The notes below the pieces were generated by a model, which worked only from the letters and a program-made list of their open reading frames with translations, made no database searches and had not been told where the DNA came from. A stretch of DNA of 64,000 nt, taken from NCBI GenBank assembly GCA_021812945.1, contig JAKAMI010000001.1:3637-67636 (forward strand), in the 5' to 3' direction. Positions 7,034-60,719 of the stretch are shown piece after piece (position 1 is the first letter of the stretch; every line of letters begins with the position of its first letter). This DNA comes from a bacterium. GTDB taxonomy: Bacteria; Patescibacteriota; UBA1384; XYA2-FULL-43-10; JAKAMI01. Position numbers and translations under genes: made by a program.

Positions 7034-7043
7034 AATATTGAAC

Positions 7044-7110
7044 GGTGACCGCCACTGATCAATTCCACTGATCATTGGGTTAATCTGCGGTATAGATCTG
7101 CGGAGGTCAC
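7044..7110. repeat. Inverted-pair palindromic element, GGTGACC/CCACWGAT family copy B
   Basis: GGTGACCGCCACTGATCAATTCCACTGATCA ... TAATCTGCGGTATAGATCTGCGGAGGTCAC. Lies between the LysM-CHAP gene stop and the obg start. Confidence 0.7.
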
Positions 7111-7125
7111 TGTTACAATTTTTTA

Positions 7126-12590: not shown

Positions 12591-12643
12591 AACTTACACA
12601 AATCTTATTCACAAATATCGCACAAATCAAAGACTGAAACAGC

Positions 12644-12718
12644 GACCTCTACAGATCAACTCCACCGATAAATCACTGATCCTGTCCCGATCTGTGGAAT
12701 TAATCTGTGGCGGTCACC
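12644..12718. repeat. Inverted-pair palindromic element, GGTGACC/CCACWGAT family copy C
   Basis: GCGACCTCTACAGATCAACTCCACCGAT ... GATCTGTGGAATTAATCTGTGGCGGTCACC. Lies between the gyrA stop and the infB start. Confidence 0.6.
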
Positions 12719-12814
12719 ATCCATATACTGATTAGAAGCATAGCACAAACCCCCCGTAGCTACAAGCTGGGGCAAAAACTTTCATCTTAGAGTACATCTA
12801 GGGTAATTGACTGA

Positions 12815-12850
12815 TGACTGATGACTGATGACTGATGACTGATGACTTTA
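12815..12850. repeat. Heptamer microsatellite (TGACTGA/GATGACT) x5-6
   Basis: TAATTGACTGATGACTGATGACTGATGACTGATGACTGATGACTTT, downstream of the gyrA stop. Confidence 0.85.
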
Positions 12851-12868: not shown

Positions 12869-12912
12869 ACATGAGATTGCCACGTCGATGACTCCTCGCA
12901 ATGACGAAGGGA
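12869..12912. repeat. ~40-bp dispersed repeat (GAGATTGCNACGTCGATGACTCCTCGCAATGACGAA), copy 1
   Basis: Near-identical to 54078..54120. Directly 3' of the gyrA stop. Confidence 0.75.
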
Positions 12913-15900: not shown

Positions 15901-16186
15901 CCATAGCAAAAAGCACCCGGCGGTGGACCGGCTTCAAGCCGTCTCGAACATCGGGCAGGGCGCGCGAGACAATAATGCTCATAGCGTAGTCAAGGTAGGA
16001 CTCTTGCATCTCTCGGACTATGCCGCGGGATTTGATAGTGCCGATGTTGGGGTCGATGATGATCTGATTTTCTTCCACTAAAATAGGTTCCTCGACAATT
16101 TCCGGCAAGGTCTCGTTGTTTTCATCGACCACCGTCTCTTCCGGCTCGATTGGTTCGTTTTCAGTTGTTTGCTTTTCGTCAGCCAT
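12917..16186 (-). CDS. gyrA: DNA gyrase subunit A with ~250-aa low-complexity C-terminal extension
   Basis: Conserved GyrA N-terminal and core (RALPDVRDGLKPVHRRVL, active-site region AAMRYTE), GyrA-box-type beta-pinwheel repeats. The Pro/Ser/Lys-rich tail carries repeated VISASPSVIPAKAGIQ/VITASPSVISASHPVIPAEAGIQ. Confidence 0.93.
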   Translation of the reverse strand: MADEKQTTENEPIEPEETVVDENNETLPEIVEEPILVEENQIIIDPNIGTIKSRGIVREMQESYLDYAMSIIVSRALPDVRDGLKPVHRRVLFAMGNLGLRSNVKYRKSATIVGEVMGNYHPHGDMAIYDTLVRMAQDFSMRYQMVDGQGNFGSMDGDSAAAMRYTEARMTKMAEEMLFDLDKDTVDWQDNYDSTKKEPKVLPAKVPQLLLNGSMGIAVGMATNIPPHNLTEVCDAINYQIDNPEATVEDLMEFVKGPDFPTGGIIYDISEIKQAYATGKGKVVIRAKAEIEEQKRGFRIVITEIPYQVNKSTLISKIADLVQEKKLEGIYDIRDESDRNGVRVVIEIKANAYPNKILNRLYELTQMQTAFHVNMLALTPSLEPQLMSLPEIISFFIAHRQVVITRRTKYDLLKAKDRAHILEGLKIALDHIEEIIETIKKSTTKETAHKNLMARFGLSGKQASAILEMRLSALAGLERQKVEDEYQEKLKLIAYLEDLLNNPAKILALIKTEINEIKTKYGDKRRTQVVEQAIGKFTAEDLIPDEQVIVTLTTGGYIKRLPVDTYRSQVRGGKGVTGMTTKEEDAVEHLLCVSTHDDVMFFTNQGRLFRTKVYEIPASGRQAKGVALVNIIQLAPNEKVTTLLMVKKNALDESKYFFMATQKGVVKKTQVLAYKNVRKSGIIAIKLNKADELKWVKLTEGDSVIVQVSSKGQAICYPETDVRAMGRSAAGVRGINLRPGDFVMGVDVVEKALSPFTDYAPKSGFPDMLVVLENGYGKRTMLKHFHLQKRGGVGIKAANCTTKTGNLIGMHIIHDDLGDVVLASRNGQVIRMKLSTIKRLGRDTQGVTLMRLTDDRVSSVTIIRPEEEKPEDQVCEVKPPKGNPPKTSHDKPADIEAKPKTKKVDSPSSVITASPSVISASHPVIPAEAGIQSESSKSEPVAKQKSETIDLVKKTISDTKLKAKPIPTKPTPTVISASPSVIPAKAGIQTDEPEEQNEPKLSPEIKINTYKEPPKPVESETTPADIIEPDKVDDTEEGKTWPENLNQPSIFKVNTYNPKVKADVEEEKKPAPKQPSKKLFDEPNYWGKQ

Positions 16187-16311: not shown

Positions 16312-18959
16312 CTAGACGTCCAAATTCTTGACCGCCTTGGCATGGGTTTGGATGAAGCGCTTGCGCGGCGGGACTTCGTCGCCCATCAGCATGGTAAATA
16401 TTTCGTCGGCTTTTTCGGCCTCTTCCACCGTCACCTGCAAAAGCACCCGATTGGCCGGATTCATAGTCGTCTGCCAGAGCTGTTCCGGATTCATTTCACC
16501 CAGACCCTTGTAGCGCTGAATACTGATCTTCCCAGGCTTTTTCTTATCCGATTTTGGATCATTGTCTTTTTCTGTGTCTCCCTCGGTTTCTTCAGTTTCT
16601 TCATCAACAATTTCTTCCGGACTTTCGGACTCTTGGACTTCGGACTGTATTTCTTCCGGCTCAAACCCGATTTTCTTTAAATAATCGTCCTTTTCCTGGT
16701 CGTTGTAGCATGGCACCTTTTCTTTGCCGTGGCTAATAATGTAGAGAGGCGGCTGGGCGATATAGATGTGGCCGTTTTCGACAATGTCGGGGAAATTGCG
16801 ATAGAAAAATGTCAAAAGTAGCGTGCGGATGTGAGCGCCGTCAACGTCGGCGTCTGTCATAATGATGATGCGGTGATAGCGAAGTTTCTTGTAGTCAATC
16901 TGGTCGCCGATACCGACTCCGACCGCCACGATTAAGGCTTTGATCTCGTCCGAGGACAACATCCGGTCCAGCCGGGCCCGTTCGACATTTAATATTTTCC
17001 CCCGCAAAGGTAATATAGCTTGAAAATTCCGATCTCGAGCTGATTTGGCACTGTTATGAACAAAAACTCCTGAAGCCAGTGCAAAGTTATGAGTGCTCGG
17101 TACTTCTATATCATAAACATCGATGTTCGTTTTTAATGACTCAATCCGCACCAATTTGAGATTACTGTGATCTATCTCGGATATGTTTGATGAAGTAATA
17201 TCAATATCAAAAGACATTAAACTTGAATCGGTTTTTAAGTCTTTCGCCTGAATAAAAGAACTGTCGCGCAACATGAACTTATGGTCCGGGGTACAAACTA
17301 TTTCTTCCCCATTATCAAGAACTAGTTTAATAACCGAGGCTTTTTTATGAGTCAACCGAGGATTTGTTATTTTTTCAATCCCTATTTTGCCACCTTGCTT
17401 TATCGTGTAACAATAATTTTGTTTCCCTTTTTTGTCTTCCTCAATAAGTTGCTTAAATGATAAATTTCTTCCGTCGGTTAGGGCTACTTTTGCATCACCT
17501 GAAAAACATCCACCGGCACTGTCGCCCTCCACAATATAGATTTCCGATCTGGAGGGATCTTTGCTGGAGCAGTCGGCCAGTTTACCCGGAAGCGTCATAC
17601 CCTCCAAAGCACCCTTGCGGATAATGGTCTCGCGGGCGGCACGAGCGGCGAGTCTGGCTTTGGCCGAAAGCGAACATTTTTCGACTATTCGGCGTCCCTC
17701 CTGTGGATTTTCTTCGAGGTAATAGGCAAAACCCTCGGCGGTGGCCGTCTCGGCGATGGAGCGGACCTCGGCGTTGCCGAGCTTGGCTTTGGTTTGGCCC
17801 TCGAACTGGGGTTCACGGAGTTTGACTGAGATAACGGCGGTTAGACCCTCCCGCACGTCGTCGCCGGAAAGCGCTTCGGAGGCGGATTTGATCCAGCCGT
17901 TTTTCTTGGCATAATCGTTGATAACCCGAGTCAATGCTGAGCGGAAGCCGGTCAGATGAGTCCCGCCGTCGGTGGTGTGAATGTTGTTGGCAAAGGAGTA
18001 AACGTGTTCTTTGAAATCGTCGGTGTAAACTACCGCGATGGTGGTTTGGACATCATCGATAATCTTTTCGTAGTAAAAAGGTTTCTCGTTGATCGGCTGG
18101 CGGTTTTTGGAGAGGCTAACGACGTAAGATTTGATCCCGCCTTCAAAATAAAAATTGTAAATTTTTGGTTTTAGAGACGGCTCTTTGGGCTGGATCGGTC
18201 TCGATTCTTTATTGTCAATATCGTCTTCTTCGATTTTTTCCCCAACAACATCGGTCTCGGTAATCTCTTCCTCGGATTCTATTTGATCGTCAAAATCTTC
18301 TTCTGCCGAATCTGTTACCCCGATCCGCTCGTCGGTTATGGTAATCCAAACTTTTTTCGTTAAATAGGCCTGCTGGCGGAGATGGTCGACGATAGTTTTG
18401 AAAGAAAATCGAATATTTTTGAAAATTTCCGGATCCGGTGAAAAGGTAATGATGGTTCCGGTACCCTCCGCAGTTCCGACCACTTTAATGTCTGAGAGCG
18501 GCTTGCCCTTCTCGTATTCCTGGGCGTAAAGTTTGCCGTCGCGTTTGACCTCGGCTCGAAGTTTGGTCGAAAGCGCATTTACCACTGAGACGCCGACACC
18601 GTGGAGACCGCCGGAGACTTTGTAGCCGCCGTCGCCAAACTTACCTCCGGCGTGGAGGATGGTCAAAACCGTTTCCAGAGCCGATTTGCCAGTCTGGCGC
18701 TGTTTGTCGACCGGAATGCCGCGGCCGTTATCGGTGATGCGTGCCGAACCGTCGGGAAGAAGCGTAACTTCGATCCGATCGCAGTAACCGGCCATCGCCT
18801 CGTCTAGGGAGTTGTCAAAAACTTCCCAGATCAAGTGATGCAGACCTTCCGGACCGGTACCGCCGATATACATTCCCGGACGTTTGCGAACCGGATCAAG
18901 CCCTTCAAGGACAGTGATCTGACTGGCATCGTATGTAGTTTTCTTTTTGTCGTCTGGCA
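16312..18959 (-). CDS. gyrB: DNA gyrase subunit B, interrupted in-frame by a mini-intein
   Basis: GyrB ATPase (HAGGKFGDGGYKVSGGLHGVGVSVVNALS), TOPRIM EGDSAGG / SAKSARDRNFQAILPLRGKILN. The likely start is MPDDKKK at 18959. The ORF-track start at 19053 reads through an upstream REP palindrome. Acidic insertions are also present. Confidence 0.93.
17053..17508 (-). other. Mini-intein (152 aa, no homing-endonuclease domain) inserted in the GyrB TOPRIM motif EGDSAGG^SAK
   Basis: N-terminal CFSGDAKVAL (block A), TxxH block B (IVCTPDHKF), C-terminal GVFVHN followed by +1 Ser. Flanking extein residues restore the conserved GyrB motif. Confidence 0.8.
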
Positions 18960-19022
18960 TATATTGAGATCCTTTCACAAACCTATTGCGCAGATAATAC
19001 CGATTTTGCCTACAAAGACAGT

Positions 19023-19063
19023 CTTTGCAAATGTGTCTAAAGACTGTCATCACTAGCCATCGG
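19023..19063. repeat. REP-like palindrome (AAAGACAGTCTTT family)
   Basis: ACAAAGACAGTCTTTGCAAATGTGTCTAAAGACTGTCATCA, upstream of gyrB. Confidence 0.75.
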
Positions 19064-19267
19064 TGTCGGTCGGTACATTACATTATATGTTAGCAATCAA
19101 GTCAAAAAACAATCACATGCTGGTGATTGCCCCTCACTACCCCCATTGTACCGATTATTTTAAATTCGATCAAGTACGGTGGATTATTGGGGATATCATA
19201 AAAAAAATGCCCGCAATCAAAGGATTTCGGTAATATTTTTAACTATCTAACGATAGGATTTAGGTAC

Positions 19268-28132: not shown

Positions 28133-28187
28133 TAATCTGTGGAATTGATCTGTGGAGGTCACCCGTCGATCAGCGGAGTGGCGGTCC
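28133..28187. repeat. GGTGACC/CCACWGAT family copy D (two tandem right-arm units)
   Basis: TAATCTGTGGAATTGATCTGTGGAGGTCACC followed by CGTCGATCAGCGGAGTGGCGGTCC. Overlaps the 3' end of the GT4 gene. Confidence 0.55.
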
Positions 28188-30807: not shown

Positions 30808-30900
30808 ATTTCAGTCATCCTGAGCTTGCGAAGGATCTACCGAAGCGGATTTGTCCGGATGATGACAGTCTTTGCAAATGCCTTTAAAGACTGTCATCAT
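30808..30900. repeat. Degenerate MITE-hairpin copy (TCATCCTGAGCTTGCGAAGGATC) fused to a REP-like palindrome
   Basis: GTCATCCTGAGCTTGCGAAGGATCTACCGAAGCGGATTTGTCCGGATGATGACAGTCTTTGCAAATGCCTTTAAAGACTGTCATCAT in a divergent intergenic region. Confidence 0.7.
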
Positions 30901-33804: not shown

Positions 33805-33817
33805 AATTGCACTCGTT

Positions 33818-33866
33818 TATGCCTAAAGACAGTCTTCACACGCCTAGCAAGACTGTCTTTAGGCAT
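33818..33866. repeat. REP palindrome flanking the RAYT gene (3' side)
   Basis: TATGCCTAAAGACAGTCTTCACACGCCTAGCAAGACTGTCTTTAGGCAT. Confidence 0.85.
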
Positions 33867-34435
33867 TAATCTACATCAAATACATCTGCAGGGAATATCT
33901 GACTGGCATTTTCCATCATTTCGAGAAATGTTCTTTTATTTAATCCCAAAGGGGCCAATAATTTACGATCGCAGTATCTATGTCGAGCGGTATTTGTATG
34001 CTCTCTATAGCTGGAGTACGGATAATCCTCAGGTTGCTTACAAAGATTTTCTTTCACCGGGTTTAGGTGTATGTAATCAACCAGATAATGAAGATATTCA
34101 TCGACAGTTACAATTTTTTGTTTGTACCGATCTTGGAATAAATGACCAATCGAATTATATTTCTTATTAAAAGATTTAGAATAGCTTGTGGTTAAAGGGG
34201 ACATAATTTTGCTTGGGGGATTTTCCAACAGTTGCTTTACCAGTAGATGAAAATGGTTAGGCATCAAACAGTATGCGATGATCGAAAAATCATATTTGTC
34301 GCAATTTTCTTTCAGTCGTTTTAGAAAATATAAATAATCGTAGAAGTCCACAAAAATGTTCCTCTTTTGATTCCCGCGATTGTATAGGTGGTACAGACAA
34401 TTCGGGGCGGATTCCTTATACTTAGAGACACCCAT
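33866..34435 (-). CDS. IS200/IS605-family HuH tyrosine transposase (REP-associated tyrosine transposase, RAYT-like)
   Basis: HuH motif CLMPNHFHLL, catalytic Tyr in GHLFQDRY, N-terminal YHLYNRGN. Flanked on both sides by inverted REP palindromes. Confidence 0.82.
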   Translation of the reverse strand: MGVSKYKESAPNCLYHLYNRGNQKRNIFVDFYDYLYFLKRLKENCDKYDFSIIAYCLMPNHFHLLVKQLLENPPSKIMSPLTTSYSKSFNKKYNSIGHLFQDRYKQKIVTVDEYLHYLVDYIHLNPVKENLCKQPEDYPYSSYREHTNTARHRYCDRKLLAPLGLNKRTFLEMMENASQIFPADVFDVD

Positions 34436-34505
34436 TTTGACCCTCCATATGTGTATATATGTGTATTATACCACTTATACCACCTGTATTCCAGATTGAC
34501 AGCTT

Positions 34506-34554
34506 TATGCCTAAAGACAGTCTTGCTAGGCGTGTGAAGACTGTCTTTAGGCGT
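34506..34554. repeat. REP palindrome flanking the RAYT gene (5' side, inverted orientation)
   Basis: TATGCCTAAAGACAGTCTTGCTAGGCGTGTGAAGACTGTCTTTAGGCGT. Confidence 0.85.
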
Positions 34555-34636
34555 GAATGGCATCGGGTGCGGATAAGAAAAATCCCTGCATTGCTGCGGG
34601 ATTTTTCTTTTGATCAAAAACAAAAATTAAATCAGA

Positions 34637-34869: not shown

Positions 34870-35040
34870 CAAGAGCGTGGCGTCAAGTTATAAAGTTGAA
34901 AGTAGAAAGTAGAAAGTTATTGAATTAGTATTTATTCAGTCTAGTAATGGTATAATAGCTTTTTTAGACGTGATTTACTTTACGAACTTTATTAACTTTA
35001 CAACTTTATAAACTTTACAAACTTTATAATTTTAAGTAGA
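34870..35040. repeat. Iteron-like inverted arrays of TAAAGTT-type nonamers
   Basis: AGTTATAAAGTTGAAAGTAGAAAGTAGAAAGTTA ... TTTACTTTACGAACTTTATTAACTTTACAACTTTATAAACTTTACAAACTTTATAAT. Confidence 0.6.
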
Positions 35041-36391: not shown

Positions 36392-36528
36392 TATTTACCA
36401 CCGATCGGTAAGTTATAAAGTTCATAAAGTCGTAAAGTTTGTAAAGTTCGTGAAGTTGTAAGGTTCGTGAAGTGACACAACTTTCAACTTTATAACTTTT
36501 TACTTTATAACTTTACAAACTTTATAAC
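36392..36528. repeat. Iteron-like inverted arrays of GTAAAGTT/AACTTTAT nonamers
   Basis: CATAAAGTCGTAAAGTTTGTAAAGTTCGTGAAGTTGTAAGGTTCGTGAAGTG-ACACAAC-TTTCAACTTTATAACTTTTTACTTTATAACTTTACAAACTTTATAACT. Confidence 0.65.
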
Positions 36529-39500
36529 TCATTGTCCCCTCATTTTGGTCAAAAACCTCGGCACCCAGGAGAAAGAACCGGTAATGGCGTCCATAATCAT
36601 CTGGAAGAGCTGTTTCTGCTTGGGCGGAGTGATCAGCGAAAAATCATCGGAAAAAGACTGATTGGCAGACCGATCCTTTGAGGTGACTCTGGCGTGGTAA
36701 GCCGAGTTTGCCTTGAGATCGTTCAGGATAATGACGTGAGTTTGGTTGAGAGACAAGTCCTCCTTTGTTTTCGAATCGTATGTTCCGGAAACCCCTTGGC
36801 CGTATTCGACCTGGCTTGTTGCCGACTCGTCGGTCTCCCAAGAGATGATGGCCTGATATTTGATGGCATTACCCGAACCGCTGGAGGTAATCTCGCTCTT
36901 CAGATTGGAAATGACCGGCGGAGTGGTATCGGCAGTGGTGGTGAAACTTATCTGACCGGAAACCGCGGTGTTGCCGAACTTATCCGTGCCTCTGGCAGTC
37001 GCGGTGTAGCCTTGCTTGGCCACCAAGCCGATGATAGTCACCGAGTGAATGGTGGTAGAATCGGATTTGCCCTGCTGACCCTGCTGGATGGCGGTTGGCG
37101 CATTTTGATCGACAGCCCGGCCTTCAACTTGAATAGCGGCGACGGGGGAGGTGGAAGCAAATTCAACATTGGAATCGGTATTGACGTTGGTATTCCAGGC
37201 GAGGGTGGCCGAGTTGGCCGAAGTCTCAGTAGCTTTGAAATCGGAGATTATCGGCTGCGCCGGAGTGGAAAAGACATAATCGTCCGAGGTGGTAATGTTG
37301 CCGTCCGTGTCTGTGGCTTTGATGCGGAGGTGATAAATGGCGCCGTCTTTAAGCTTGTCAAGCTTAAACTTGTGCTCGGTATTTAAGGTGGTGTCGATCA
37401 GGGTTGCGCCATAGCCGGTGGAATCGCCATAGTCCAAGCTAGTGATCGAGAGTTTGGAGGTGGACCAGGAGACCAGCGCTCCGGTCTGGGTAATGTCGGA
37501 GATAGTGGTGCCGGAAATCAGAAGCAGGATCCGCTCCGGTGTGGTGAAATCCAGCACATCGGAGTAACCAGCAATCTGAATCTCGTTCTTGGAGATAACC
37601 TTAAAGTAGTATTTAGCGGCCGGATCAAGATTGTAAAGCCAGATCTCGTGATTTAGAGTCATCTTCGGATCGCCGGCGATCTTAACGACCCCGCCATTAT
37701 CCGCAGTCATATCATCTTTGGCGTGGATTGAACTGGTCGAATAGGCCACCGAGGAGTCAGCGTTCTGATCGGTATCCCAGCTGATCTTGGCGCGAACTCC
37801 TTGGTCTTGTTTCCAGCCGAAGAGCTCGACCTTGGGTTTGGCCGTGACATCGGGTGCCGAACCGGGTTGAGATGAGAGCGGGCCGGCCGGAATAGAGAGG
37901 TTGCCGGCAGTGTCTTCGGCCTGAACCTTGTAGGCGTAAGTAATGCTGGAGGAGAGGTTAATATCCAGAAAGCCGTTTTTGGTGGTGGTGTCGACCTGAG
38001 AGTAAGTTGCGCCGTCGGTCGAACGGAAAACATGATAAGTCTTGGGTACCGGCACCACGTCATCCCAGACCAACGTCAAACGATACTTATTTGTCGCTAT
38101 GGTTGACCCATCCTTGATGGCAAAGTTGGCCGGCGTGCCATACAGAGTTTTGGAGGTCTGGGTTAAATTGTTCTCAAGATCCCTAAACTTGAAGTAGATA
38201 ATGTTTTTGTTTTGCAAATCAAAGTTATTCTTTGACGTTGCGTAACTCTCCCAGGAACCGCCGGCAAAGCCGGAGTCCATCGAGATCATCATCTGGATCG
38301 GATTTGAGTCATCGGTGACGTTTAAGACCAAGTTGACCGAGCCTCCGGCCGAGGCATCGCTAACAATCGAGTTGACCAACGGGTTCTTGGAGTCCAGAGT
38401 CAACAAGCTGGAATCGGCATAAGCATTTGAGCCTTGAGCGGTGACTTTGACCCGCATCTTGAAGGTGTTGTTCAAGAATTGGCCGTCAAAATCGACTTTG
38501 GGATCAAAGTAGGCGGTGTATTGCGGCAGGCTGGCGTCACCGTTGAAGCTGCCGTTGGTCTGTCCGGATTGAGCAGGGGCCGAAGCATTGGCCCAGGAGT
38601 TGCCGCCGGAGTTAAAGTAAGCGAGACTGACTTGGCTCGGCCAACGCAGTTTATACATCACCTTGACCTTGCCCGGATTGGCCGGATCGGTGCGGTCGAG
38701 CTGGACCGCCGTTACCTCTCTGGGGGCAATGTCGGCCGGCACGGCGTCTAAGGTGATACTCTTGTCGGTTTCAAGGTAAGAGTTGTCCTGTTTTTTGTAG
38801 GCATAAGAAACTTTGTAGTAGTAGTGGTTGCCGTTGGTCAGACCGGTGTCGGTGTAGTCAGTGCGCGTGCCGGCAGTTACCGCCAGCGGGTTGGGAGTGG
38901 TAACGATCTTGCTGTAGTTGGTCGGAAAGGCGGAACAGTCGGTGGTCGGGCTTAAAACGGGGCCTGCGGCGCAACGATAAATATAGGCCTGCGGCGTCAA
39001 GCCAGTGTCGGCCGGTATGTCAAAAGGATTGGTCCAAGTCAGGGTGACTTGCTGATAACCCGGGGCGGCTTCGATCAGATCGTTGACAAGGCCGGTGTGG
39101 TCGGTGGCGGTGTGGCGCGAGCCGGGAATATGAGTGGTAACGTAGACTTTGCTCGGATTGTTGGTCGAGGCCGGAAAGATACCGGTCGAGGCCGGATTTT
39201 TCGAAGGATCGGCCGGTTCAAGCCGCGGATCGGTTTTTTTGGTTGAAGGATCGGTAGCATAAGTCGAAGTTGGATCGACACATTCTGAGGCCGAAAGACT
39301 TTGGTAGCCGCCGGTTTGGAACTTGAAGTAATTTGTCGGGGTGTTTTGCGGAGTAAAGGTATGTGCCCCGAGATCGCCGGCCGGAAACTGGAAACAGCCG
39401 GAAGAGTCGGTCGAAACGGTCTTAGTGTAAGGCAAAACCGCTTGGGCATCGGAAGAATAAAAGTAAACCATACCGGCCTTAGAAGTCGGATCGTAGCCGT

Positions 39501-50448: not shown

Positions 50449-50576
50449 ACTTTCCTTAAATTACCAATAATCAACGATCAATGATCAATTAATTATCAAT
50501 GGACAAGGGGGAAATGAAAATTAATACTTGATTATTAAATGATAATTGAAAATTGATATTTGAAAATTGAATCCGG
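50449..50576. repeat. Solo copy of the AT-rich core found in the three rnpB insertions (TGATCAA-rich half plus TTGAAAATTGATATTTGAAA half), lacking the terminal hairpins
   Basis: CAATAATCAACGATCAATGATCAATTAATTATCAATGG...TTGAAAATTGATATTTGAAAATTGAAT matches the rnpB insertion cores. Confidence 0.6.
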
Positions 50577-51332
50577 CTACTGTCCGATGACGTGCTCTGA
50601 CGGCTTGAAACCGCCAACGTCTTTGATCGGTACCCGAGCGTGATTCTTATCTATCTTGTCTATCAACCCGTCTTTGAGGCGGATTACCCGATTAGCGTAT
50701 TTGAGATAATCCGGGTTGTGGGTGACCATAATGATCGTCTTTTTTGATTTTTGATTTAGGGTATTGAAAATACCCATAACCTCGCCAGCGGATTTCGAAT
50801 CCAGATTGCCGGTCGGTTCGTCGCAAATCAGAATCCAAGGGTTGGTGGCTAGCGCTCTAGCCATGGCCACTCGTTGCTGCTGGCCTCCGGAAAGCTCGGT
50901 CGGAATATTTTTTAAGTGGTCTTTGAGCCCGAACATTACCAAAAGATCCTCGGCGCGGTTCAAGGACTTGTAATAATCTCCTCCGGAGGACAAAAGCGGC
51001 AAGGCCACGTTTTCCTGAACCGTCATGGATTTTAGAAGGTTAAAGGACTGGAAGACTATGCCGATCTTGCTCTGGCGGAACTTGGCCATCTGGTTCGGGT
51101 CGTAATTGGCCAGCTCCTCGCCGCGAATTTTCAGGCTGCCTTCCGAGACGTTTTCCAGACCGGAGACGATATTGAGCAGAGTCGATTTACCGCAACCGGA
51201 AGGGCCGAAGATGATAATGAATTCGCCCGATTCGATATCAAAAGACACCCCTTTGATGACTTCGATCACGTTCGCCCCGAGATCAAATTTTTTCTTGATG
51301 TTTTTGGCTTCGATAACCTTAGTTTTCGCCAC
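50577..51332 (-). CDS. ABC transporter ATP-binding protein (MacB/LolD-like)
   Basis: Walker [10 protein letters not shown], signature [15 protein letters not shown], Walker [13 protein letters not shown]. Confidence 0.9.
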
Positions 51333-51389
51333 CTTATCCCCTCCGCCTTAGAACTTAAGTCTGTAGCGTTTTCAACTAAGATATGTCAT

Positions 51390-51475
51390 CCTGAGCTAAT
51401 TTCTGTCATCCTGAGCCTGCGAAGGATCTATTCCATAGACAAAGATTCTTCACTGCATTCAGAATGACAGTCTAA
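51390..51475. repeat. Degenerate MITE-hairpin copy (left boundary of GC-rich islet)
   Basis: ATGTCATCCTGAGCTAATTTCTGTCATCCTGAGCCTGCGAAGGATCTATTCCATAGACAAAGATTCTTCACTGCATTCAGAATGACAGTCT. Confidence 0.65.
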
Positions 51476-51669
51476 GTTGAAATGTGCAACAGCAGTATTT
51501 ATATACATCATAGCAGGAATGAGAAAACATCGTCAACGGTATTTACATCAAGATAATTATCTGATAAAAATGAATTGATGACTAAGCCAATCTGCCAAAA
51601 CATAATTAGCAATATCGTTACCCCAACCTCATAGGCGGTGGTGTTGTTTAGCTGGCCAAAAGATGATTA

Positions 51670-51695
51670 ACCCCGCCGCAGACGGGGTTTTTGTT
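51670..51695 (+). terminator. Intrinsic terminator-like hairpin plus T-run
   Basis: AACCCCGCCGCAGACGGGGTTTTTGTTTT. Confidence 0.5.
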
Positions 51696-51770
51696 TTATG
51701 CTTGGGCTGAAGGGACTTTTCTTCGGCCGAAGATGTGAGACAAAAACGCGAGAGATGGAGGTTAGAGACG

Positions 51771-52058
51771 ATGCCAATGTCGCATAAGCAAGCAGAGTCG
51801 TTGGTGAGAAAAGTTCGAGCCCAGATCAGACAGGAGGCAAACGCGAGAATTACAGCCATCAGGGCTGAGTCCGCCCGGGCGCAAGGACTTGTCGCCGTCC
51901 TTGACGAAGATAATGATTCGACCATTACGATCGGGGGGATTCACTGCTTCAACGAGATGGCTACCTACCAATCAGATAGCCAGATCATCAACAACTTGGT
52001 TGAGAAGGCCCAGCAGAAAGCAGCTACGCGGGCTCTTACACCCGCGACTTCTACCTGA
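51771..52058 (+). CDS. Hypothetical protein (95 aa) in GC-rich islet
   Basis: RBS GGAGG 8 nt upstream. GC-rich codon usage unlike neighbours. Translation MPMSHKQAESLVRKVRAQIRQEANARITAIRAE... Followed by the GC palindrome GGCCCCGGGGCCGACCGGCCCCGGGCC. Confidence 0.45.
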   Translation: MPMSHKQAESLVRKVRAQIRQEANARITAIRAESARAQGLVAVLDEDNDSTITIGGIHCFNEMATYQSDSQIINNLVEKAQQKAATRALTPATST

Positions 52059-52146
52059 AGCCGCGACGGTCAAGACACAAGCAGGCCCCGGGGCCGACCG
52101 GCCCCGGGCCCAACTGCTCCTGACATTGTTTGCTTGGTTTGATAAT

Positions 52147-52288
52147 ATTAGTTTGTAGCAAAATGTGGCTTGTTCCGTCATCCTTAAGCTGATGTCTGTG
52201 ATCCTTAAGCTTGTTCTGTCATCCTGAGCTTGCGAAGGATCTCTACTTATGGAATAGATCCTTCGCAAGCTCAGGATGACAAAATACG
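52147..52288. repeat. MITE-like element with perfect 24-bp hairpin arms (right boundary of GC-rich islet)
   Basis: ATTAGTTTGTAGCAAAATGTGGCTTGTTC...GTCATCCTGAGCTTGCGAAGGATC-TCTACTTATGGAATA-GATCCTTCGCAAGCTCAGGATGAC. Near-identical to 56385..56485. Confidence 0.85.
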
Positions 52289-52319
52289 ACGATAGACTCT
52301 AATTATTCACATCTGGTCT

Positions 52320-54086
52320 ATGAAATTGCTGGGAGGTAAATTTCTATGGCTCGGATTTTCTGTTCTGGTCGTCTTTTTATTGTTCCCGAATCAGGCTAAA
52401 GCCACCTCCGATCACTTGGTTATCAACGAACTCCTTCCTAACCCAAACACCGACGAAAAAGAATGGGTGGAAATCTATAACCCGACGGCCGCTTCCGTCG
52501 ATTTTGGCAACTACGTACTTATGGATGGAAGTAAAACCAAAAAAACCTTGTCTGGGTTTGTTGATCCGGACAGTTATTTTGTTTTATCCGTCTCAAGCGG
52601 TTGGCTAAACAATGACGGCGAGATTCTATTCTTGCTTCAGGAAAACAACAGTTTGATTATCGATCAAGCCGCATACGGTAATTGGTCGGACAAGGTGCTG
52701 GACGCTAATCTTGATTTTGACGGCACAAGCAATTTCAAACCGGCCCCGGCCAAAGGCCAATCGATCTCCAGAATTCCAAACGGACAAGATACCGATGTCG
52801 ATAAAAACGATTTTCGGATTGTGGCATCGACTCCGGGGACAAAGAATGTATTGCCGGTTTATCCCGACTCGATTAAGATCAACGAGGTCTTGCCGGCGCC
52901 GGCTAACGGCCAAGAAGAATTTGTCGAATTATATAATACGGGAGACCAAATAGTCGATCTCTCCGGCTGGCAACTGGACGATGCCGGGGACGGTAGCTCT
53001 CCTTACCCGATTCCGGACGGGACAACAGTTGATGCCGGCGGATATTTGATAATTAACCATGCCCAATCTAAAATATATTTCAACGACAGCGGCGACAGCG
53101 TTCGGCTATTCGATCCAAACGGGGATTTGAAAGATATGCTGGTATACGATAAAGCCAAAACCGGTTTTTCTTTCGCCAATGTTGGAGGCGCTTGGCAATG
53201 GACTAACCAACCTACGCCTTATTCTAAAAATCAATCTTCGATTTTGGAAGCGGGATCGGATTCTCCGAATTATCCGCAACTCTCTATCGACCAGGCCAAA
53301 GAACTGAAAATCGGCTCTTATGTTAAAGTCAGGGGTAAGATCAGTGTCAAAAACGGAGTTTTATCCAAGCATTATTTCTATCTGGAGGATAACACCGGCG
53401 GCCTGCAGATTTACAGCTACGACGCGGCTTTCCCCGAGCTGGTCGACGGACAGCCGGTCGAGGCCAAAGGAGAGTTATCGTCTTATCACGATGAGTTGAG
53501 ATTAAAAGTCTCTCCAGTAAGCGATATCTTAGTCATTCAGCCATCCAAAAATCCTCCGCCGGCGATCGCGCCGGTCACTCCGAAACCGATCACCGGCCAA
53601 CCCCTCCTAGTAACCGACGTCGGCCGTTTGGTTAGCCTAAAAGGCAAAGTCATAAAAAATAGCGGCCAGGACATTTATTTATCTCATCAAGACGGACCAG
53701 TAAAGGTTTATTTGATTGATTTGACCGGTATCAAAAAACCAAGACTAAAAACCGGCCGCGAGCTTGAAGTTACCGGCATTTTAAGTTACTATGATGACTA
53801 CTTCCGCCTTCTGCCACGCTATCAATCCGATATCAAAGTGCTCGAGACTTTACCAAATTCCGGAAGCGGACTATTCTTTCCCCTATTATTTGCGAGTCTA
53901 ACAACATTTTTGATTTATCTACTAACAGATCATCACGAAATACGACGAGCGTACTACTTCTACAAAAGACAACGTTTCTATCGAACGGAAAGTTCGAGGC
54001 GAGCTTTTGCTGAATTTCGACGGTTTAGAAGTGCTTTGAGACAACGATCTCAAAGAGCGCCTAGAAATTCAGCGAAGGCGAGCTGA
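52320..54086 (+). CDS. Surface protein with two lamin-tail (LTD) domains and two OB-fold modules, C-terminal TM anchor plus basic tail
   Basis: Signal peptide. LTD signatures (LVINELLPNPNTDEKEWVEIYNPT..., IKINEVLPAPANGQEEFVELYNTGD...LSGWQLDD). OB-fold-like beta segments. C-terminal LFFPLLFASLTTFLIYLL then an Arg-rich tail. Confidence 0.6.
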   Translation: MKLLGGKFLWLGFSVLVVFLLFPNQAKATSDHLVINELLPNPNTDEKEWVEIYNPTAASVDFGNYVLMDGSKTKKTLSGFVDPDSYFVLSVSSGWLNNDGEILFLLQENNSLIIDQAAYGNWSDKVLDANLDFDGTSNFKPAPAKGQSISRIPNGQDTDVDKNDFRIVASTPGTKNVLPVYPDSIKINEVLPAPANGQEEFVELYNTGDQIVDLSGWQLDDAGDGSSPYPIPDGTTVDAGGYLIINHAQSKIYFNDSGDSVRLFDPNGDLKDMLVYDKAKTGFSFANVGGAWQWTNQPTPYSKNQSSILEAGSDSPNYPQLSIDQAKELKIGSYVKVRGKISVKNGVLSKHYFYLEDNTGGLQIYSYDAAFPELVDGQPVEAKGELSSYHDELRLKVSPVSDILVIQPSKNPPPAIAPVTPKPITGQPLLVTDVGRLVSLKGKVIKNSGQDIYLSHQDGPVKVYLIDLTGIKKPRLKTGRELEVTGILSYYDDYFRLLPRYQSDIKVLETLPNSGSGLFFPLLFASLTTFLIYLLTDHHEIRRAYYFYKRQRFYRTESSRRAFAEFRRFRSALRQRSQRAPRNSAKAS

Positions 54087-54120
54087 GATTGCTACGTCGA
54101 TGACTCCTCGCAATGACGAA
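54078..54120. repeat. ~40-bp dispersed repeat, copy 2
   Basis: GAGATTGCTACGTCGATGACTCCTCGCAATGACGAAAGAG matches 12869..12912. Confidence 0.75.
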
Positions 54121-55441: not shown

Positions 55442-55474
55442 TAAACTGCTTAAGTGAACCGGGTAATAGCCCTA

Positions 55475-55641
55475 CCGTGTAAAGCACGGAATGATCAAAA
55501 TAATATTCAATGATCAAGGATCAGTTAATGTTCAATTATCAATGATCAAGCAAGTACTTGAAAGTTGAAACTTGATATTTAATTGAAAATTGATATTTGA
55601 AACTTGAAAATTAATCTTTGATACTTCCGCGCTTTGCGCGG
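55475..55641 (+). repeat. rnpB insertion 1 (167 bp) at the P3 position
   Basis: Begins CCGTGTAAAGCACGG, AT-rich TGATCAA/TTGAAA core, ends CCGCGCTTTGCGCGG. The two termini are imperfect inverted repeats (14/15 pairs as RNA). Confidence 0.85.
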
Positions 55642-55738
55642 CTGGGGAGGAAAGTCCGGGCACCAAAGAGTATGGCACCAATGAAAGTTGGCTGGCGTAA
55701 TGCCACGGGAATAGTGCAACAGAAAACATACCGCCGAA

Positions 55739-55912
55739 CCGTGTAAAGCACGGAATGATCAAAATAATATTCAATGGTCAATGATCAATGATCAGTTAAT
55801 ATCCAATTATCAATAATCAATTTAACTATTGAAAATTGAGAATTGATACTTAATTGAAAATTGACACTTGAAACTTGAAAATTAATCTTTGATACTTCCG
55901 CGCTTTGCGCGG
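55739..55912 (+). repeat. rnpB insertion 2 (174 bp) at the P9 position
   Basis: Same termini and core as insertion 1. Replaces the P9 hairpin between ...ACCGCCGAAC and UGGUAAGG. Confidence 0.85.
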
Positions 55913-56076
55913 TGGTAAGGTTGAAATCGTAGTGTAAGAGACTACGCGTTTGATGGGAAACTATCAACTGTGAAAACCCTGCCTGGTGCAAGTTGGGTGG
56001 GCCCTTTATCATCATTTGCGGCTTCTCGTCGCGATGACCTCGGGTCCCAACGCTTAGATAGATTATTGCCGCCGCG

Positions 56077-56250
56077 CCGTGTAAAGCACGGAATGATCAA
56101 AACAATGTTCAAGGATCAATGGTCAATGATCAGTTAATATCCAATTATCAATGATCAAGCGAGTACTTGAAAATTGAGACTTGATATTTAATTGAAAATT
56201 GATATTTGAAACTTGAAAATTTATCTTTGATACTTCCGCGCTTTGCGCGG
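56077..56250 (+). repeat. rnpB insertion 3 (174 bp) in the linker between the P2 and P4 3' strands
   Basis: Same termini and core. Flanked by ...UUAUUGCCGCCGCG and CGAGGUACAGAACCCGG. Confidence 0.85.
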
Positions 56251-56345
56251 CGAGGTACAGAACCCGGCTTATAGGTTCGTTTAAGCACAGAGCTACATTT
56301 AGGCCTCCGTAACTTTATGGCCTGTCCCCTTCGGGGGAATGTGGC

Positions 56346-56380
56346 GACACCCCTACTAGCGTGGGGGTGTTTTAATTTTC
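56346..56380 (+). terminator. Intrinsic terminator downstream of rnpB
   Basis: ACACCCCTACTAGCGTGGGGGTGTTTTAATTTT, preceded by a UUCG-loop hairpin CCCCTTCGGGGG. Confidence 0.6.
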
Positions 56381-56384
56381 TAAA

Positions 56385-56485
56385 ATTAGTTTGTAGCGAA
56401 ATGTAGCTTGTTCTGTCATCCTGAGCTTGCGAAGGATCTATTCTATAGGTAGAGATCCTTCGCAAGCTCAGGATGACAAAATATC
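56385..56485. repeat. MITE-like element with perfect 24-bp hairpin arms (second full copy)
   Basis: ATTAGTTTGTAGCGAAATGTAGCTTGTTCTGTCATCCTGAGCTTGCGAAGGATC-TATTCTATAGGTAGA-GATCCTTCGCAAGCTCAGGATGAC. Confidence 0.85.
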
Positions 56486-58769: not shown

Positions 58770-58800
58770 AACTTTATAACTTTACAAACTTTATAACTTT
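58770..58800. repeat. TAAAGTT-nonamer repeat filling the entire ruvA-ruvB spacer
   Basis: AACTTTATAACTTTACAAACTTTATAACTTT. Shared with 36490-36528 and 34990-35030. Confidence 0.7.
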
Positions 58801-59385
58801 CTACTTGCTTAGGTTCTTAAGCAGCCATCTTATTTTTCCCTCCGAATCGCCAATCTCTGCCGGCACCTTCGGAATCATCTTGACGATCTCGGCTCGTTTA
58901 TAGCCGAGTGATTCCAGCGCCTCCACCACCTCGTCGGCCTCTATGGTCTGGCCGATGACGCCACTGCCGTCCATCCCGCTTATCTTTGATTTTAGATCCA
59001 AAATAATCTTGGCCGCCACTTTCTTGCCGATGCCGGAAATGGCGGTAAAAAATCCCAGATCTTCGTTGACGATTGAGGCGATGATCCGGTCTGAAGACGC
59101 TGAGGCCATTATCAACATTCCCGCCTTTGGTCCGACCCCGTTGACCGAGATCAATTTTTCGAAAAGTTCTAACTCTTCAAACGTCCTAAAGCCATAAAAA
59201 TCATCCGCATCCTCCCGAATGTTCTCATAAATGAACAACTCTATAATTCCGGATTCTTCCTTTATTTTGAGATTTGAGATCTGAACTTTGAGATCTGTAA
59301 AAACTTTGTACCCGACCCCGCCGACATCCAGCACCACAAATCCCGGTTTCTCCAATATTATTTTTCCGCGCAAAAATGAAATCAT
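58801..59385 (-). CDS. ruvA: Holliday junction DNA-binding protein RuvA
   Basis: N-terminal OB domain (MISFLRGKIILEKPGFVVLDVGGVGYKV), HhH motifs (LISVNGVGPKAG, ISGIGKKVAAKI). Confidence 0.92.
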   Translation of the reverse strand: MISFLRGKIILEKPGFVVLDVGGVGYKVFTDLKVQISNLKIKEESGIIELFIYENIREDADDFYGFRTFEELELFEKLISVNGVGPKAGMLIMASASSDRIIASIVNEDLGFFTAISGIGKKVAAKIILDLKSKISGMDGSGVIGQTIEADEVVEALESLGYKRAEIVKMIPKVPAEIGDSEGKIRWLLKNLSK

Positions 59386-60719
59386 TTAACAATGCTTAAT
59401 AATTTTTCTTTCTCTCGTTTGAGAATTTCTTGGCTCTTGGCCTCCATGTTTAGTTTTACTACCGGCTCGGTGTTTGAGCCTCGAAGGTTGAAACGAAACT
59501 CTGGCGACTCCACCGTCAGCCCGTCAAGCTCATTTTGGGAGAATTCTCGATAATTCTCCTTAACGGTTTTAATCATTTCGGCTGGATCTTCGACCTGAAA
59601 TTTGATTTCTTCGCTCAAAGCATGACCGGCTTGATATTTTGAGAGTAGCTGGGAAAGTTTCTGACCGCTTTCTGAAATTATCTGCCAAACCAGTAAAAAT
59701 GGTATTATACCGTTGTCGCAGTAATGGTTTTCTTTAAAGAAATAATGAGCAGTCATTTCAGCTCCAAACTCGGCTCCCTCTTTTAACATTTTTTCCTTAA
59801 GAAAACGATAACCGGCTTTTGTTGAGAAAAATTGACCGTCGTTTTCGGTGACTGCTTTTTCGATTGGCCAAATAATTCTGGCATCGCCAACGACTTTCAG
59901 TTTAGGATATTTTTTGGAAAGCTGTTCGCACAATAAGGCTGTAATATACGGGGCGTCGATAAAATTGCCCGCTTCGTCGAGAAAGAAACACCGATCTCCA
60001 TCGCCATCCCAGATAACCCCGAATTCAGCACCAGATTTTTTGAATTTTTCAACAGATCCCCCTCTAACCTGGCTGTTTAAGGGGTTCGGTTCGGACAAAC
60101 CACCAAAATTTTGATCCGGGTCAGCGTTATTGTACACCGGTTCGACCGGCAATTCGTTCAAGAGGTCTTTAATGATTAAGCCCACAGAACCATAGAGTGG
60201 ATCAAAAAAGATTTTTGTTTTCTTTAGCTTGCTAATATTTACAAACTTTAATAAAAACTTAATATAATCTTTGTTTATATTCACTTCAGTGGCTGAACCC
60301 TTGTCTCCAAGAGAATCGAAGTTGCCTTCGATCACCCCGGACTTCAACTCGGTATCTTCGCCCGGGATAGAGACTGCGCCCTTACTCATCATTTTAATCC
60401 CACCGTAGCCGACCGGATTATGAGAAGCGGAGGCTATGATCCCGCCATCGTAAGCGTAAAACCAAGTGGCAAAACCAATCATCGGATTGGTCATTCGGCC
60501 AGCTAAAAAAACATCTACACCCTGATCGATTAGCCCTTCGACGATCTGGTCGTAAATTTCATCCGAAGCTTGCCGCATATCTTTGCCGACAATAACCTGC
60601 TTTGGTTTGATTTTTTTAGCGTAGGAAACTGCAATTTTATAAGCAATTTCTCCGTTTAGTTGATCCGGATAAATCCCCCGTACATCGTAAGCCTTAAAAA
60701 TCTTCTCGTTAATCTCCAT
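59382..60719 (-). CDS. Phosphohexomutase (phosphomannomutase/phosphoglucomutase family)
   Basis: Active-site phosphoserine loop ASASHNPVGYGGIK, metal-binding DGDGDR. Confidence 0.85.
   Translation of the reverse strand: MEINEKIFKAYDVRGIYPDQLNGEIAYKIAVSYAKKIKPKQVIVGKDMRQASDEIYDQIVEGLIDQGVDVFLAGRMTNPMIGFATWFYAYDGGIIASASHNPVGYGGIKMMSKGAVSIPGEDTELKSGVIEGNFDSLGDKGSATEVNINKDYIKFLLKFVNISKLKKTKIFFDPLYGSVGLIIKDLLNELPVEPVYNNADPDQNFGGLSEPNPLNSQVRGGSVEKFKKSGAEFGVIWDGDGDRCFFLDEAGNFIDAPYITALLCEQLSKKYPKLKVVGDARIIWPIEKAVTENDGQFFSTKAGYRFLKEKMLKEGAEFGAEMTAHYFFKENHYCDNGIIPFLLVWQIISESGQKLSQLLSKYQAGHALSEEIKFQVEDPAEMIKTVKENYREFSQNELDGLTVESPEFRFNLRGSNTEPVVKLNMEAKSQEILKREKEKLLSIVK

Follow-up and report, generated by a model that had tools for sequence, protein, structure and literature searches.

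The closest described relatives of the repeat hairpins reported here are the CGTC-tagged repetitive extragenic palindromes (REPs) and the target repeats of the Ssn nucleases. The hairpins lie in a 64-kb stretch of DNA (the window hereafter) from contig JAKAMI010000001.1 of a Patescibacteria (candidate phyla radiation, CPR) bacterium, and each consists of two inverted copies, or arms, of one short repeat. The CGTC superfamily was defined by a CGTC, TGTC or CCTC tag and by stems that start with AT, and it includes dRS3/NIME of Neisseria and RPE-4 and RPE-6 of Rickettsia (Di Nocera et al., 2013; PMC3733652). CGTC REPs were shown to occur chiefly as head-to-head dimers with their tags facing outward, both as homodimers and as heterodimers, and some units lie in frame within genes. 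Many REPs were also argued to be transcribed. A dedicated transposase was not found, and none of the units adjoined a tyrosine transposase gene; movement driven by a REP-associated tyrosine transposase (RAYT) was left open (Di Nocera et al., 2013).

A partner enzyme was described in 2025. Ssn proteins form a family of ~94-aa nucleases with a single GIY-YIG domain, and their targets are the Neisseria repeat NTS (CGTCATTCCCGCGMAVGCGGGAATCYRG) and Ssn-related motifs (SRMs; Chenal et al., 2025; PMC11893778). The Ssn proteins of Neisseria and Wolbachia were shown to bind the cognate unit solely as single-stranded DNA, on one strand, and to introduce a nick a few nucleotides 5' of the tag. Binding depends most on the C that follows the palindrome, and cutting depends most on the three bases that precede it. 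The ssn genes are usually flanked by repeats. SsnA has been shown to reduce transformation by NTS-containing DNA, and the mobilization of units by Ssn was put forward as a hypothesis (Chenal et al., 2025).

The family to which the hairpins point has accordingly been described already, its superfamily in 2013 and its partner enzyme in 2025. We consider it probable (about 0.75) that the arms in the window are units of this CGTC/TGTC-tagged REP (NTS/SRM) superfamily, and that the hairpins are the gene-less, non-autonomous form of an arm-ssn-arm mini-element. The hairpins are read as gene-less doublets because the same two arms elsewhere enclose an Ssn-family gene. By analogy, the hairpin would stand to the arm-ssn-arm unit as a REPIN stands to a RAYT gene, or as a miniature inverted-repeat transposable element (MITE) stands to its transposon. 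The evidence consists of a sequence family with a doublet architecture and a covarying stem, its spread across phyla, a two-way association with ssn genes and the absence of target-site duplication.

The Arm and the Two Perfect Hairpins

The core arm, GTCATCCTGAGCTTGCGAAGGATC, occurs six times in the window at one mismatch or fewer, where dinucleotide-preserving shuffles give an expectation of 0. Five of the occurrences are exact and one carries a single mismatch (Table 1). In its full form the arm is an oriented unit, (T)GTCATCCTGAGCTTGCGAAGGATC(T), with the plan (T)GTC-ATCCT...AGGAT-C and a conserved interior GAGC..CGAAG. Stated more generally, the unit has a 5' (T)GTC tag, a short stem of the form A-YYYY/RRRR-T and a C directly after the stem. 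The tag is TGTC in 5/6 focal units and AGTC in the remaining one (30813), and all of the stems begin with AT.

Four of the exact arms form two hairpins. A sequence-only reading of the window had proposed two near-identical full copies with a 24-bp stem and a 15-nt loop; both copies are real, and these dimensions are the conservative core of a 26-bp stem with a 13-nt loop. In the repeat alignment, the foldback arms of both copies are 29 nt long, 97% complementary and 13 nt apart. DNA folding gives a perfect 26-bp stem for copies 1 and 2, at -31.8 and -32.5 kcal/mol (z ~ -13). The two copies also have ~40 bp of 5' flank in common (52138-52184 and 56376-56422, 87% identical). While these flanks align directly, the two loops are reverse complements of each other (11/13 positions match in inverted and 6/13 in direct alignment), and the alignment of the whole copies agrees with an inversion (94% inverted vs 91% direct). 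The spacer has therefore flipped between the arms.

Table 1. Repeat units, doublets and their flanks in the 64-kb window.
Feature	Position (strand)	Units or sequence	Remarks
Doublet copy 1	52214-52284	Units 52218-52241 (+) and 52257-52280 (-), exact core arms	TGTC tags outward; 13-nt loop 52243-52255
Doublet copy 2	56411-56481	Units 56415-56438 (+) and 56454-56477 (-), exact core arms	
5' flank of copy 1	52138-52176 (+)		Counterpart in copy 2
Decayed extra unit of copy 1	52177-52209	GTCATCCTTAAGC...GATCCTTAAGC	~41 nt; absent from copy 2
5' flank of copy 2	56376-56410 (+)	TTAGTTTGTAGCRAAATGTRGCTTGTTC	Counterpart in copy 1
Heterodimer, 51.4 kb	51385-51468	Unit A 51405-51428 (+), core arm with one mismatch; unit B 51444-51468 (-), arm AGATTCTTCACTGCATTCAGAATGAC, unit sequence (-) GTCATTCTGAATGCAGTGAAGAATC	Truncated head 51385-51396
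Heterodimer, 30.8 kb	30810-30866	Unit A 30814-30837 (+), exact core arm; divergent inverted partner 30847-30866	
Sister unit in obg	6649-6677 (-)	TGTCATCCCGGGCTTGACCCGGGATCCAC	Exact match to the published SRM search pattern
Partial second unit in obg	6685-6705 (-)		
Sister unit	12875-12905 (-)	GTCATTGCGAGGAGTCATCGACGTGGCAATC	Directly 3' of the gyrA stop codon
Sister unit, second copy	54087-54117 (-)		Bridges the LTD stop codon and the tsaE start codon
NTS-like unit in gyrA	13223-13246 (-)	GTCATTCCTGCGAAGGCAGGAATC	In frame, peptide VIPAKAGIQ
Second NTS-like unit in gyrA	13394-13417 (-)		In frame, peptide VIPAEAGIQ

Association With Ssn-Family Nucleases

The arm and the nuclease gene were connected in both directions. 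In the forward direction, a small GIY-YIG gene lies beside an arm in 3 of the 120 genome loci recovered with the arm (L125, L116 and L217). One of these, from a member of the Fimbriimonadaceae (L125), has a 105-aa GIY-YIG open reading frame (ORF; PF01541, E = 4e-16) with composite elements on both sides, each ending in an exact arm. The L125 protein has thousands of relatives. The reverse test started from 80 metagenome loci that were picked by protein alone, via an alignment of 30 of these relatives (A1). A unit of the focal family was found within 300 nt of the nuclease gene in 41/80 loci, and on both sides of it in 20/80. The density of units is 1.89/kb near the gene vs 0.02/kb in the far flanks. 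The published SRM pattern was found near the gene in 2/80 loci. In an unbiased count of 7-mers, the flank words found in the most loci were AGCGAAG, CTGAGCG, GTCATCC and CGAAGGA; these are pieces of the arm, and each is present in 41-50 of the 80 loci and enriched 10- to 17-fold.

In the commonest layout, a (+) arm lies 9-95 nt upstream of the gene and a (-) arm overlaps its stop codon, with the TGA inside ..ATGAC. The gene-bearing units measure 358-455 nt, usually ~360 nt, and the partner nucleases are single-domain GIY-YIG proteins of 95-105 aa. Many database proteins of the family terminate in a translated arm, for example ..RDSSLRSE. Many Ssn-family genes were also seen on contigs of ~0.5-2 kb, with arm-derived tails at the N or C terminus of the predicted proteins (such as the one just given and VILSGARNERSRRIS..); at the flanking repeats, assemblies therefore break and gene calls go wrong, with spurious ORFs and C-terminal tails as a result.

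The identity of the partner protein was established by comparison with the SsnA orthologue of Neisseria gonorrhoeae. This protein has 94 aa and carries Y6, Y17 and E64, the catalytic residues that were mutated by Chenal et al. (2025; PMC11893778), and its gene lies among 12 NTS units in 1.46 kb, mainly arranged as tag-outward doublets. The L125 protein shares 52% identity with this orthologue (E = 2e-28), and hhalign of the A1 profile against it gives a probability of 99.9%; on both counts, the gene bracketed by focal arms is therefore an Ssn-family nuclease. The gonococcal record used (NZ_CP119140.1, 1881681-1883141) is a 2.17-Mb chromosome filed as a plasmid, in which the SsnA orthologue (locus 595-879) is unannotated.

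The protein-selected loci also provided 68 distinct units in which the two stem halves covary. The pairs TTCT/AGAA (28), TCCT/AGGA (17), TTCC/GGAA (8) and CCCT/AGGG (7) were the ones recorded, and all four stem pairs are Watson-Crick in 64/68 units vs 6% expected. The short 5-bp stem is under selection, since its halves covary.

Distribution, Doublets and Target Sites

The exact 24-mer, with C or T allowed at one position, was sought in a one-genome-per-species collection of 596 Gb, and the counts are lower bounds. It is present in over 120 genome stretches that represent at least nine phyla, with ~0.01 chance matches expected in the whole collection. The phyla are Bacteroidota, Chloroflexota, Acidobacteriota, Armatimonadota, Abditibacteriota, Verrucomicrobiota, Planctomycetota, Pseudomonadota and Patescibacteria. 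Among the matches listed, the carriers are Hymenobacter, Spirosoma, Cyclobacteriaceae, Chloroflexota, Terriglobia, Armatimonadota, Abditibacteriota and Chthoniobacter, together with Planctomycetota, Burkholderiales, Marinimicrobium, Rhodothermales and Candidatus Peribacteria. A looser pattern recovered 109 viral-contig stretches, most commonly in the form GTCATCCTGAGCGNAGCGAAGGATC. No Ssn gene was found beside the motif in the viral-contig loci, a result that is uninformative on the association, and a plasmid search with the hairpin gave one partial match and no evidence of plasmid spread.

The doublet is a recurrent form. Of 133 genome matches, at least 70 are accompanied within 110 nt by an arm in inverted orientation, whether of the same sub-type or a different one, and the architecture recurs in isolates, including Hymenobacter strains and the complete genome of Abditibacteriota IAD-21. 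In 77 non-redundant doublets the spacers measure 2-120 nt, most often 15-17 nt, which is the form seen in the window. The same 77 doublets have 2-nt direct repeats at their ends in 7 cases vs 4.8 expected, and repeats of 4 nt or more in none; the palindrome extends at least 6 nt into the local flank in 8/77. The copies in the window likewise have no target-site duplication.

In L321, a relative with an 82% identical RuvB, the orthologous site upstream of the LTD gene is occupied by a lone focal-type arm. The same relative carries a doublet in which canonical NTS-type arms, GTCATTCCCGCGAAGGCGGGAATC, are separated by 15 nt. Together, these two observations show that the unit types are interchangeable in one architecture, and they suggest that the units are old residents of the clade.

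Comparison With Described Systems

The units resemble NTS and the SRMs in their (C/T)GTC tag, in a palindrome that begins with AT, in the C after the palindrome and in their many, mainly intergenic copies. Like these repeats, they lie on both sides of a ~95-aa single-domain GIY-YIG gene (for the focal arms, in other genomes), and the Neisseria units are also mainly tag-outward doublets. They differ in that the focal stem has 5 Watson-Crick pairs around an interior of 10-11 nt, whereas NTS has an 8-bp stem and a 4-nt loop. Furthermore, the focal spacer of 13-15 nt merges two units into one perfect 26-bp hairpin, the host is a Patescibacteria bacterium, and no ssn gene was seen in the window.

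With the CGTC REPs the focal units have in common the terminal tag, the AT first stem pair, head-to-head homodimers and heterodimers (with 1-100 bp between the units), sporadic in-frame insertions into housekeeping genes (obg and gyrA in the window) and units without an adjoining tyrosine transposase. The four families described by Di Nocera et al. (2013) have stems of 8-9 bp and loops of 4-5 nt, whereas the focal unit has a 5-bp stem and a 10-nt interior; the units at 6652, 13223 and 13394 do have an 8-9 bp stem and a 4-5 nt loop. Chloroflexota, Acidobacteriota, Armatimonadota, Abditibacteriota and Patescibacteria extend the host range beyond the five phyla listed in that study (PMC3733652).

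The architecture is also that of a REPIN, an inverted doublet of short palindromic units that folds into a long hairpin without target-site duplication. In both systems a single-copy gene lies between the same units, and the doublet corresponds to that arrangement without the gene. The two differ in the tag (GTC vs GTAG) and in the enzyme (a GIY-YIG nuclease vs an HUH tyrosine transposase). REPINs and RAYTs reportedly go back to work by Bertels and Rainey in 2011. Mobility has been demonstrated for REPINs.

The sequence-only reading had classed the hairpins as a MITE family. Part of this view stands. As in classical MITEs such as the Correia elements, the repeats measure 71-130 nt, are dispersed and non-coding, have terminal inverted repeats and have a longer gene-bearing counterpart with the same ends, here one in which the inverted arms enclose a nuclease gene. 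A classical MITE they are not: target-site duplications are not in excess over the 77 doublets, single arms are frequent, and the counterpart gene encodes a 95-aa GIY-YIG nuclease, not a DDE transposase or any transposase of a known insertion sequence (IS) family.

Heterodimers and Sister Units

By a general definition (GTC, a palindrome of at least 5 bp, C), the window holds 17 units vs 2.4 +/- 1.6 in 200 shuffles. GTCAT units account for 12/17, and five sub-types can be told apart. The dimers comprise two homodimers and two heterodimers, all with tags outward. The copies at 30.8 and 51.4 kb had been taken for degenerate ones. They are genuine copies but not degenerate, each being a full doublet with a perfect or near-perfect left arm and a right arm of a different type. 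The family is dispersed as had been proposed, with copies at 30.8, 51.4, 52.2 and 56.4 kb and sister units at 6.6, 12.9, 13.2-13.4 and 54.1 kb in addition to the matches in other genomes; a local duplication does not describe it. A related 40-bp repeat noted at the time is likewise real; both of its copies (12875-12905 and 54087-54117), on the minus strand, read GTCATTGCGAGGAGTCATCGACGTRGCAATC.

Both heterodimers were also said to abut REP palindromes. The 30.8-kb doublet does abut a whole palindrome (30860-30895), the 51.4-kb doublet meets merely half of one (51462-51474), and these palindromes form a separate, RAYT-linked family. Its 11-mer AAGACWGTCTT has 10 sites in the window vs 0.01 expected. 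The window also holds a complete REPtron (33816-34557), in which a 189-aa RAYT (33866-34435, minus) lies between 57-nt inverted copies.

Three sister units and one partial unit fall within genes and add peptides to essential proteins. In obg (5975-7075, minus), the GTCAT units are in frame within a 30-aa insertion (aa 114-143, peptide ..DSSFVIPDSSFVIPGLTRDP..) that falls where the Obg profile skips from position 97 to 99, and they recall the Rickettsia palindromic elements (RPEs) in coding genes. Both gyrA units are translated as part of a low-complexity extension at the C terminus of DNA gyrase subunit A (gyrA 12917-16186, minus). A scan of the hairpin-encoded peptides and the gyrA tail against NCBIfam, for example for RPE domains, gave no match. 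Just upstream of the sister unit at 12875-12905, the heptamer CTGATGA is tandemly repeated five-fold (12813-12847).

Genomic Setting and Assembly

The RuvB protein has its nearest named relatives in Candidatus Berkelbacteria and in bacteria labelled 'Patescibacteria group', which places the source in the CPR. All focal copies are intergenic. The placement described previously, with one copy 5' of the LTD surface-protein gene and one 3' of rnpB, is as stated. Copy 1 ends 36 nt upstream of the LTD gene start (52320). Copy 2 is flanked by the terminator of rnpB on one side and the bPH_2 stop codon (56497) on the other; rnpB itself occupies 55607-56287. The 51.4-kb heterodimer is ~50 nt upstream of the start of an ABC ATPase gene (51332, minus strand), and the 30.8-kb copy lies between divergent genes. 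Two copies fall between divergent gene starts, those of the ABC ATPase and the LTD protein and those of a sugar transferase and a histidine phosphatase.

The hairpins are real and not assembly artefacts, because independent assemblies of the same population, 99.97-100% identical, contain them within contigs. Both are internal to a 73,969-bp ENA contig and to NCBI GCA_027460745.1, and the 56.4-kb copy is internal in GCA_021839875.1. Such hairpins do interrupt short-read assemblies: other assemblies of the population end inside them, at window positions 52156, 52248 and 56457.

Weighing the Interpretation

Several observations weigh against assigning the arms to the Ssn-linked superfamily as its gene-less doublets. 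The focal arms are at least three substitutions away from the SRM pattern HGTCWYN(0-2)YYVSBRHN(0-5)WNVSBRGN(0-2)RNCYNB, which the NTS control fits and the unit at 6649-6677 matches exactly. Folded alone, a single focal arm reaches -1.7 kcal/mol, no better than shuffles; NTS reaches -9.0 kcal/mol. The covariation of the stem halves nevertheless speaks for the 5-bp focal stem. The perfect doublet buries the GTC tag in a 26-bp stem, whereas Ssn is reportedly inactive on double-stranded DNA. No Ssn homologue was found by tblastn, regular expression or a 30-member hidden Markov model in the 64-kb window, in ~11 kb of adjoining contig or in ~70 kb from relatives; the regular expression for GIY-YIG missed true genes elsewhere and so was given no weight. 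Nor was an insertion polymorphism or empty site found among the assemblies of the population, which are near-identical, and the relatives, which are truncated or rearranged: the contig of the relative with a 93% identical RuvB ends before the sites, and the relatives with an 82% identical RuvB are rearranged. Cleavage of the focal sub-type by Ssn and Ssn mobilization of superfamily members are both hypotheses at this point.

The window contains a RAYT gene (33866-34435) that is recognized by Pfam Y1_Tnp (E = 1.4e-16) and by NCBIfam NF047646 (80.4 bits vs a cut-off of 80), and the hairpins might therefore be REPINs of this IS200-type tyrosine transposase, which would recognize them in single-stranded, hairpin form and copy them. 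In architecture the doublets match REPINs exactly, RAYT-type palindromes touch two of the copies, and RAYT-driven movement of CGTC REPs was left open by Di Nocera et al. (2013). The gene is, however, flanked by a different palindrome, AAGACAGTCTT-N12-AAGACTGTCTT (33816-33872 and 34501-34557), of which the window holds 10 copies. The tag of the focal arms is GTC rather than GTAG, these arms flank GIY-YIG genes in other genomes, and no CGTC unit was found beside a tyrosine transposase gene by Di Nocera et al. (PMC3733652). The RAYT evidently belongs to the AAGACWGTCTT palindrome family and is an unlikely agent for the GTCAT arms, and we give this explanation little credence. We give as little to an action at the RNA level, where the hairpins would be terminators, processing or stability elements, or a small RNA, and their similarity to SRMs would be secondary. 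They are certainly very stable, copy 2 lies between the convergent genes rnpB and bPH_2, copy 1 would lie within the 5' leader of the LTD mRNA if a promoter-like site at 52120-52148 is used, and many REPs were argued to be transcribed (Di Nocera et al., 2013; PMC3733652). The sequence-only reading had argued from the lack of a T-run that they are unlikely to be simple terminators. The two full copies have no T-run on either strand, and a terminator scan did not call them, whereas the same scan gives rnpB a canonical terminator of its own (56346-56371). The remaining copies are likewise not followed by T-runs. Two copies lie between divergent gene starts, and neither the exact identity of 24 nt over at least nine phyla nor weakly folding single arms are requirements of a terminator. 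At gathering thresholds Rfam found tmRNA and rnpB alone in the window. The best match to the hairpin was a miRNA model at 40.7 bits against a gathering score of 90, the sole match with E<0.01, with all others at E>=0.5; a permissive scan of 51300-52400 gave sub-threshold miRNA and snoRNA matches on both strands, as any long hairpin would.

Domesticated host marks, as opposed to selfish copies, present a somewhat less remote, though still improbable, alternative. Ssn would then, as proposed for Neisseria, cut incoming or displaced single strands at the units and limit recombination near particular genes. The sole biological role shown for any Ssn/NTS pair, the lowering of transformation by NTS-containing DNA by SsnA (PMC11893778), fits this proposal, and so does the focal-type arm at the same site upstream of the LTD gene in the relative with an 82% identical RuvB, which suggests long residence. 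Competence and Ssn are both presumed in this organism, however, and the units also occur in frame in obg and gyrA and at random gene junctions, which resembles tolerated insertions rather than placed marks. A role of this kind concerns the consequence of the units, not their origin, and is compatible with their being gene-less doublets of an Ssn-linked family. That the perfect foldbacks are chimeric inverted joins made during assembly is hardly credible. The several same-population assemblies that end inside the hairpins are what such joins might lead one to expect, but the hairpins are contig-internal in independent assemblies and their architecture recurs in isolate genomes.

Other Features of the Window

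Between the two repeat elements at 51.4 and 52.2 kb lie ~670 bp (51469-52137) in which no gene is called in public assemblies. A 107-aa ORF there (51735-52058) is without credible family, and the region also holds a bidirectional terminator-like hairpin (51669-51689) and a G+C-rich hairpin (~52083-52110). The neighboring RNase P RNA is 681 nt long vs a model of 367 nt, with inserts of ~175 nt in P12 and ~155 nt near P18. A third copy of the ~182-nt insert unit lies just upstream and overlaps the 5' end of rnpB (region 55460-56287). These units are AT-rich repeats with a 7-nt period that terminate in CUUCCGCGCUUUGCGCGG. The rnpB of the relative L321 has a single such insert, and an AT-rich repeat akin to the inserts is found at the intergenic positions 50465-50571.

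Elsewhere, gyrB (16312-19053, minus) contains an intein (Pfam Intein_splicing, aa 525-667) between its gyrase B and Toprim domains. The motif GGTGACCNCCACTGATCAAYTCCACTGAT is found with an inverted partner, ATCTGTGGAATTRATCTGTGGNGGTCACC, ~50 nt away in four intergenic regions (2159-2266, 7040-7111, 12637-12718 and 28135-28163). The pair adjoins rpoB/rpoC, obg, infB and a glycosyltransferase gene, it also occurs upstream of a translational GTPase gene just past the window end (~19100-19200 of locus L322), and it could be a shared regulatory or promoter-region element. Arrays with a 9-nt period (ACTTTAYAA / CTTTACAAACTTTATAACTTTA), direct and inverted, occupy the intergenic positions 34969-35035, 36425-36529, 58771-58806 and 60228-60250.

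Discussion

A mechanism can be proposed in which two units lie head to head with their tags outward, 13-15 nt would take the place of the gene, and a single strand would fold into one long hairpin. In this lineage, an Ssn-type nuclease acting on DNA that becomes single-stranded during replication, transformation or repair may have seeded and multiplied the units. The candidate single-stranded target of the arm-associated nuclease is TGTCATCCTGAGCTTGCGAAGGATCT. The arms would be kept identical by nuclease recognition, by arm-to-arm correction or by both, and the spacer would flip through recombination between the arms. Effects on neighboring genes are best seen as probable by-products; they comprise a hairpin within the 5' leader of LTD, a structure that follows rnpB and peptides encoded in frame in obg and gyrA.

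A bolder proposal can be made only tentatively, and the odds are against it. The ~360-nt arm-ssn-arm units might be autonomous mobile elements whose sole gene encodes a 95-aa, single-strand-specific GIY-YIG nuclease. The hairpins in the window would then represent the non-autonomous doublets of such elements. They would be multiplying within a reduced CPR genome, perhaps in trans or after the nuclease was lost, and would be tolerated even where they lie in frame in obg and gyrA. If true, these units would be among the smallest self-contained bacterial mobile elements. The proposal would also name the mover of the CGTC REPs that was left open by Di Nocera et al. (2013), a nick-based one that leaves no target-site duplication, and the published SRM search pattern would miss a large, cross-phylum part of the family.

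Relative to the descriptions of the superfamily and of its enzyme, what is added here is new but incremental: a CPR host, a sub-type that the published pattern misses despite its strong link to an Ssn clade, and a very compact gene-bearing unit. A Patescibacteria genome joins the carriers of Ssn-type repeats. The sub-type GTCATYCTGAG..GAAGRATC is very widespread and associated with a large clade of Ssn-like genes. Ssn/motif pairs are probably undercounted at present, because the SRM pattern matches near so few of the protein-selected genes (2/80) in comparison with the focal sub-type (41/80). Taken together, the gene-bearing unit and its gene-less doublets offer a concrete, bench-testable model of how such repeats spread.

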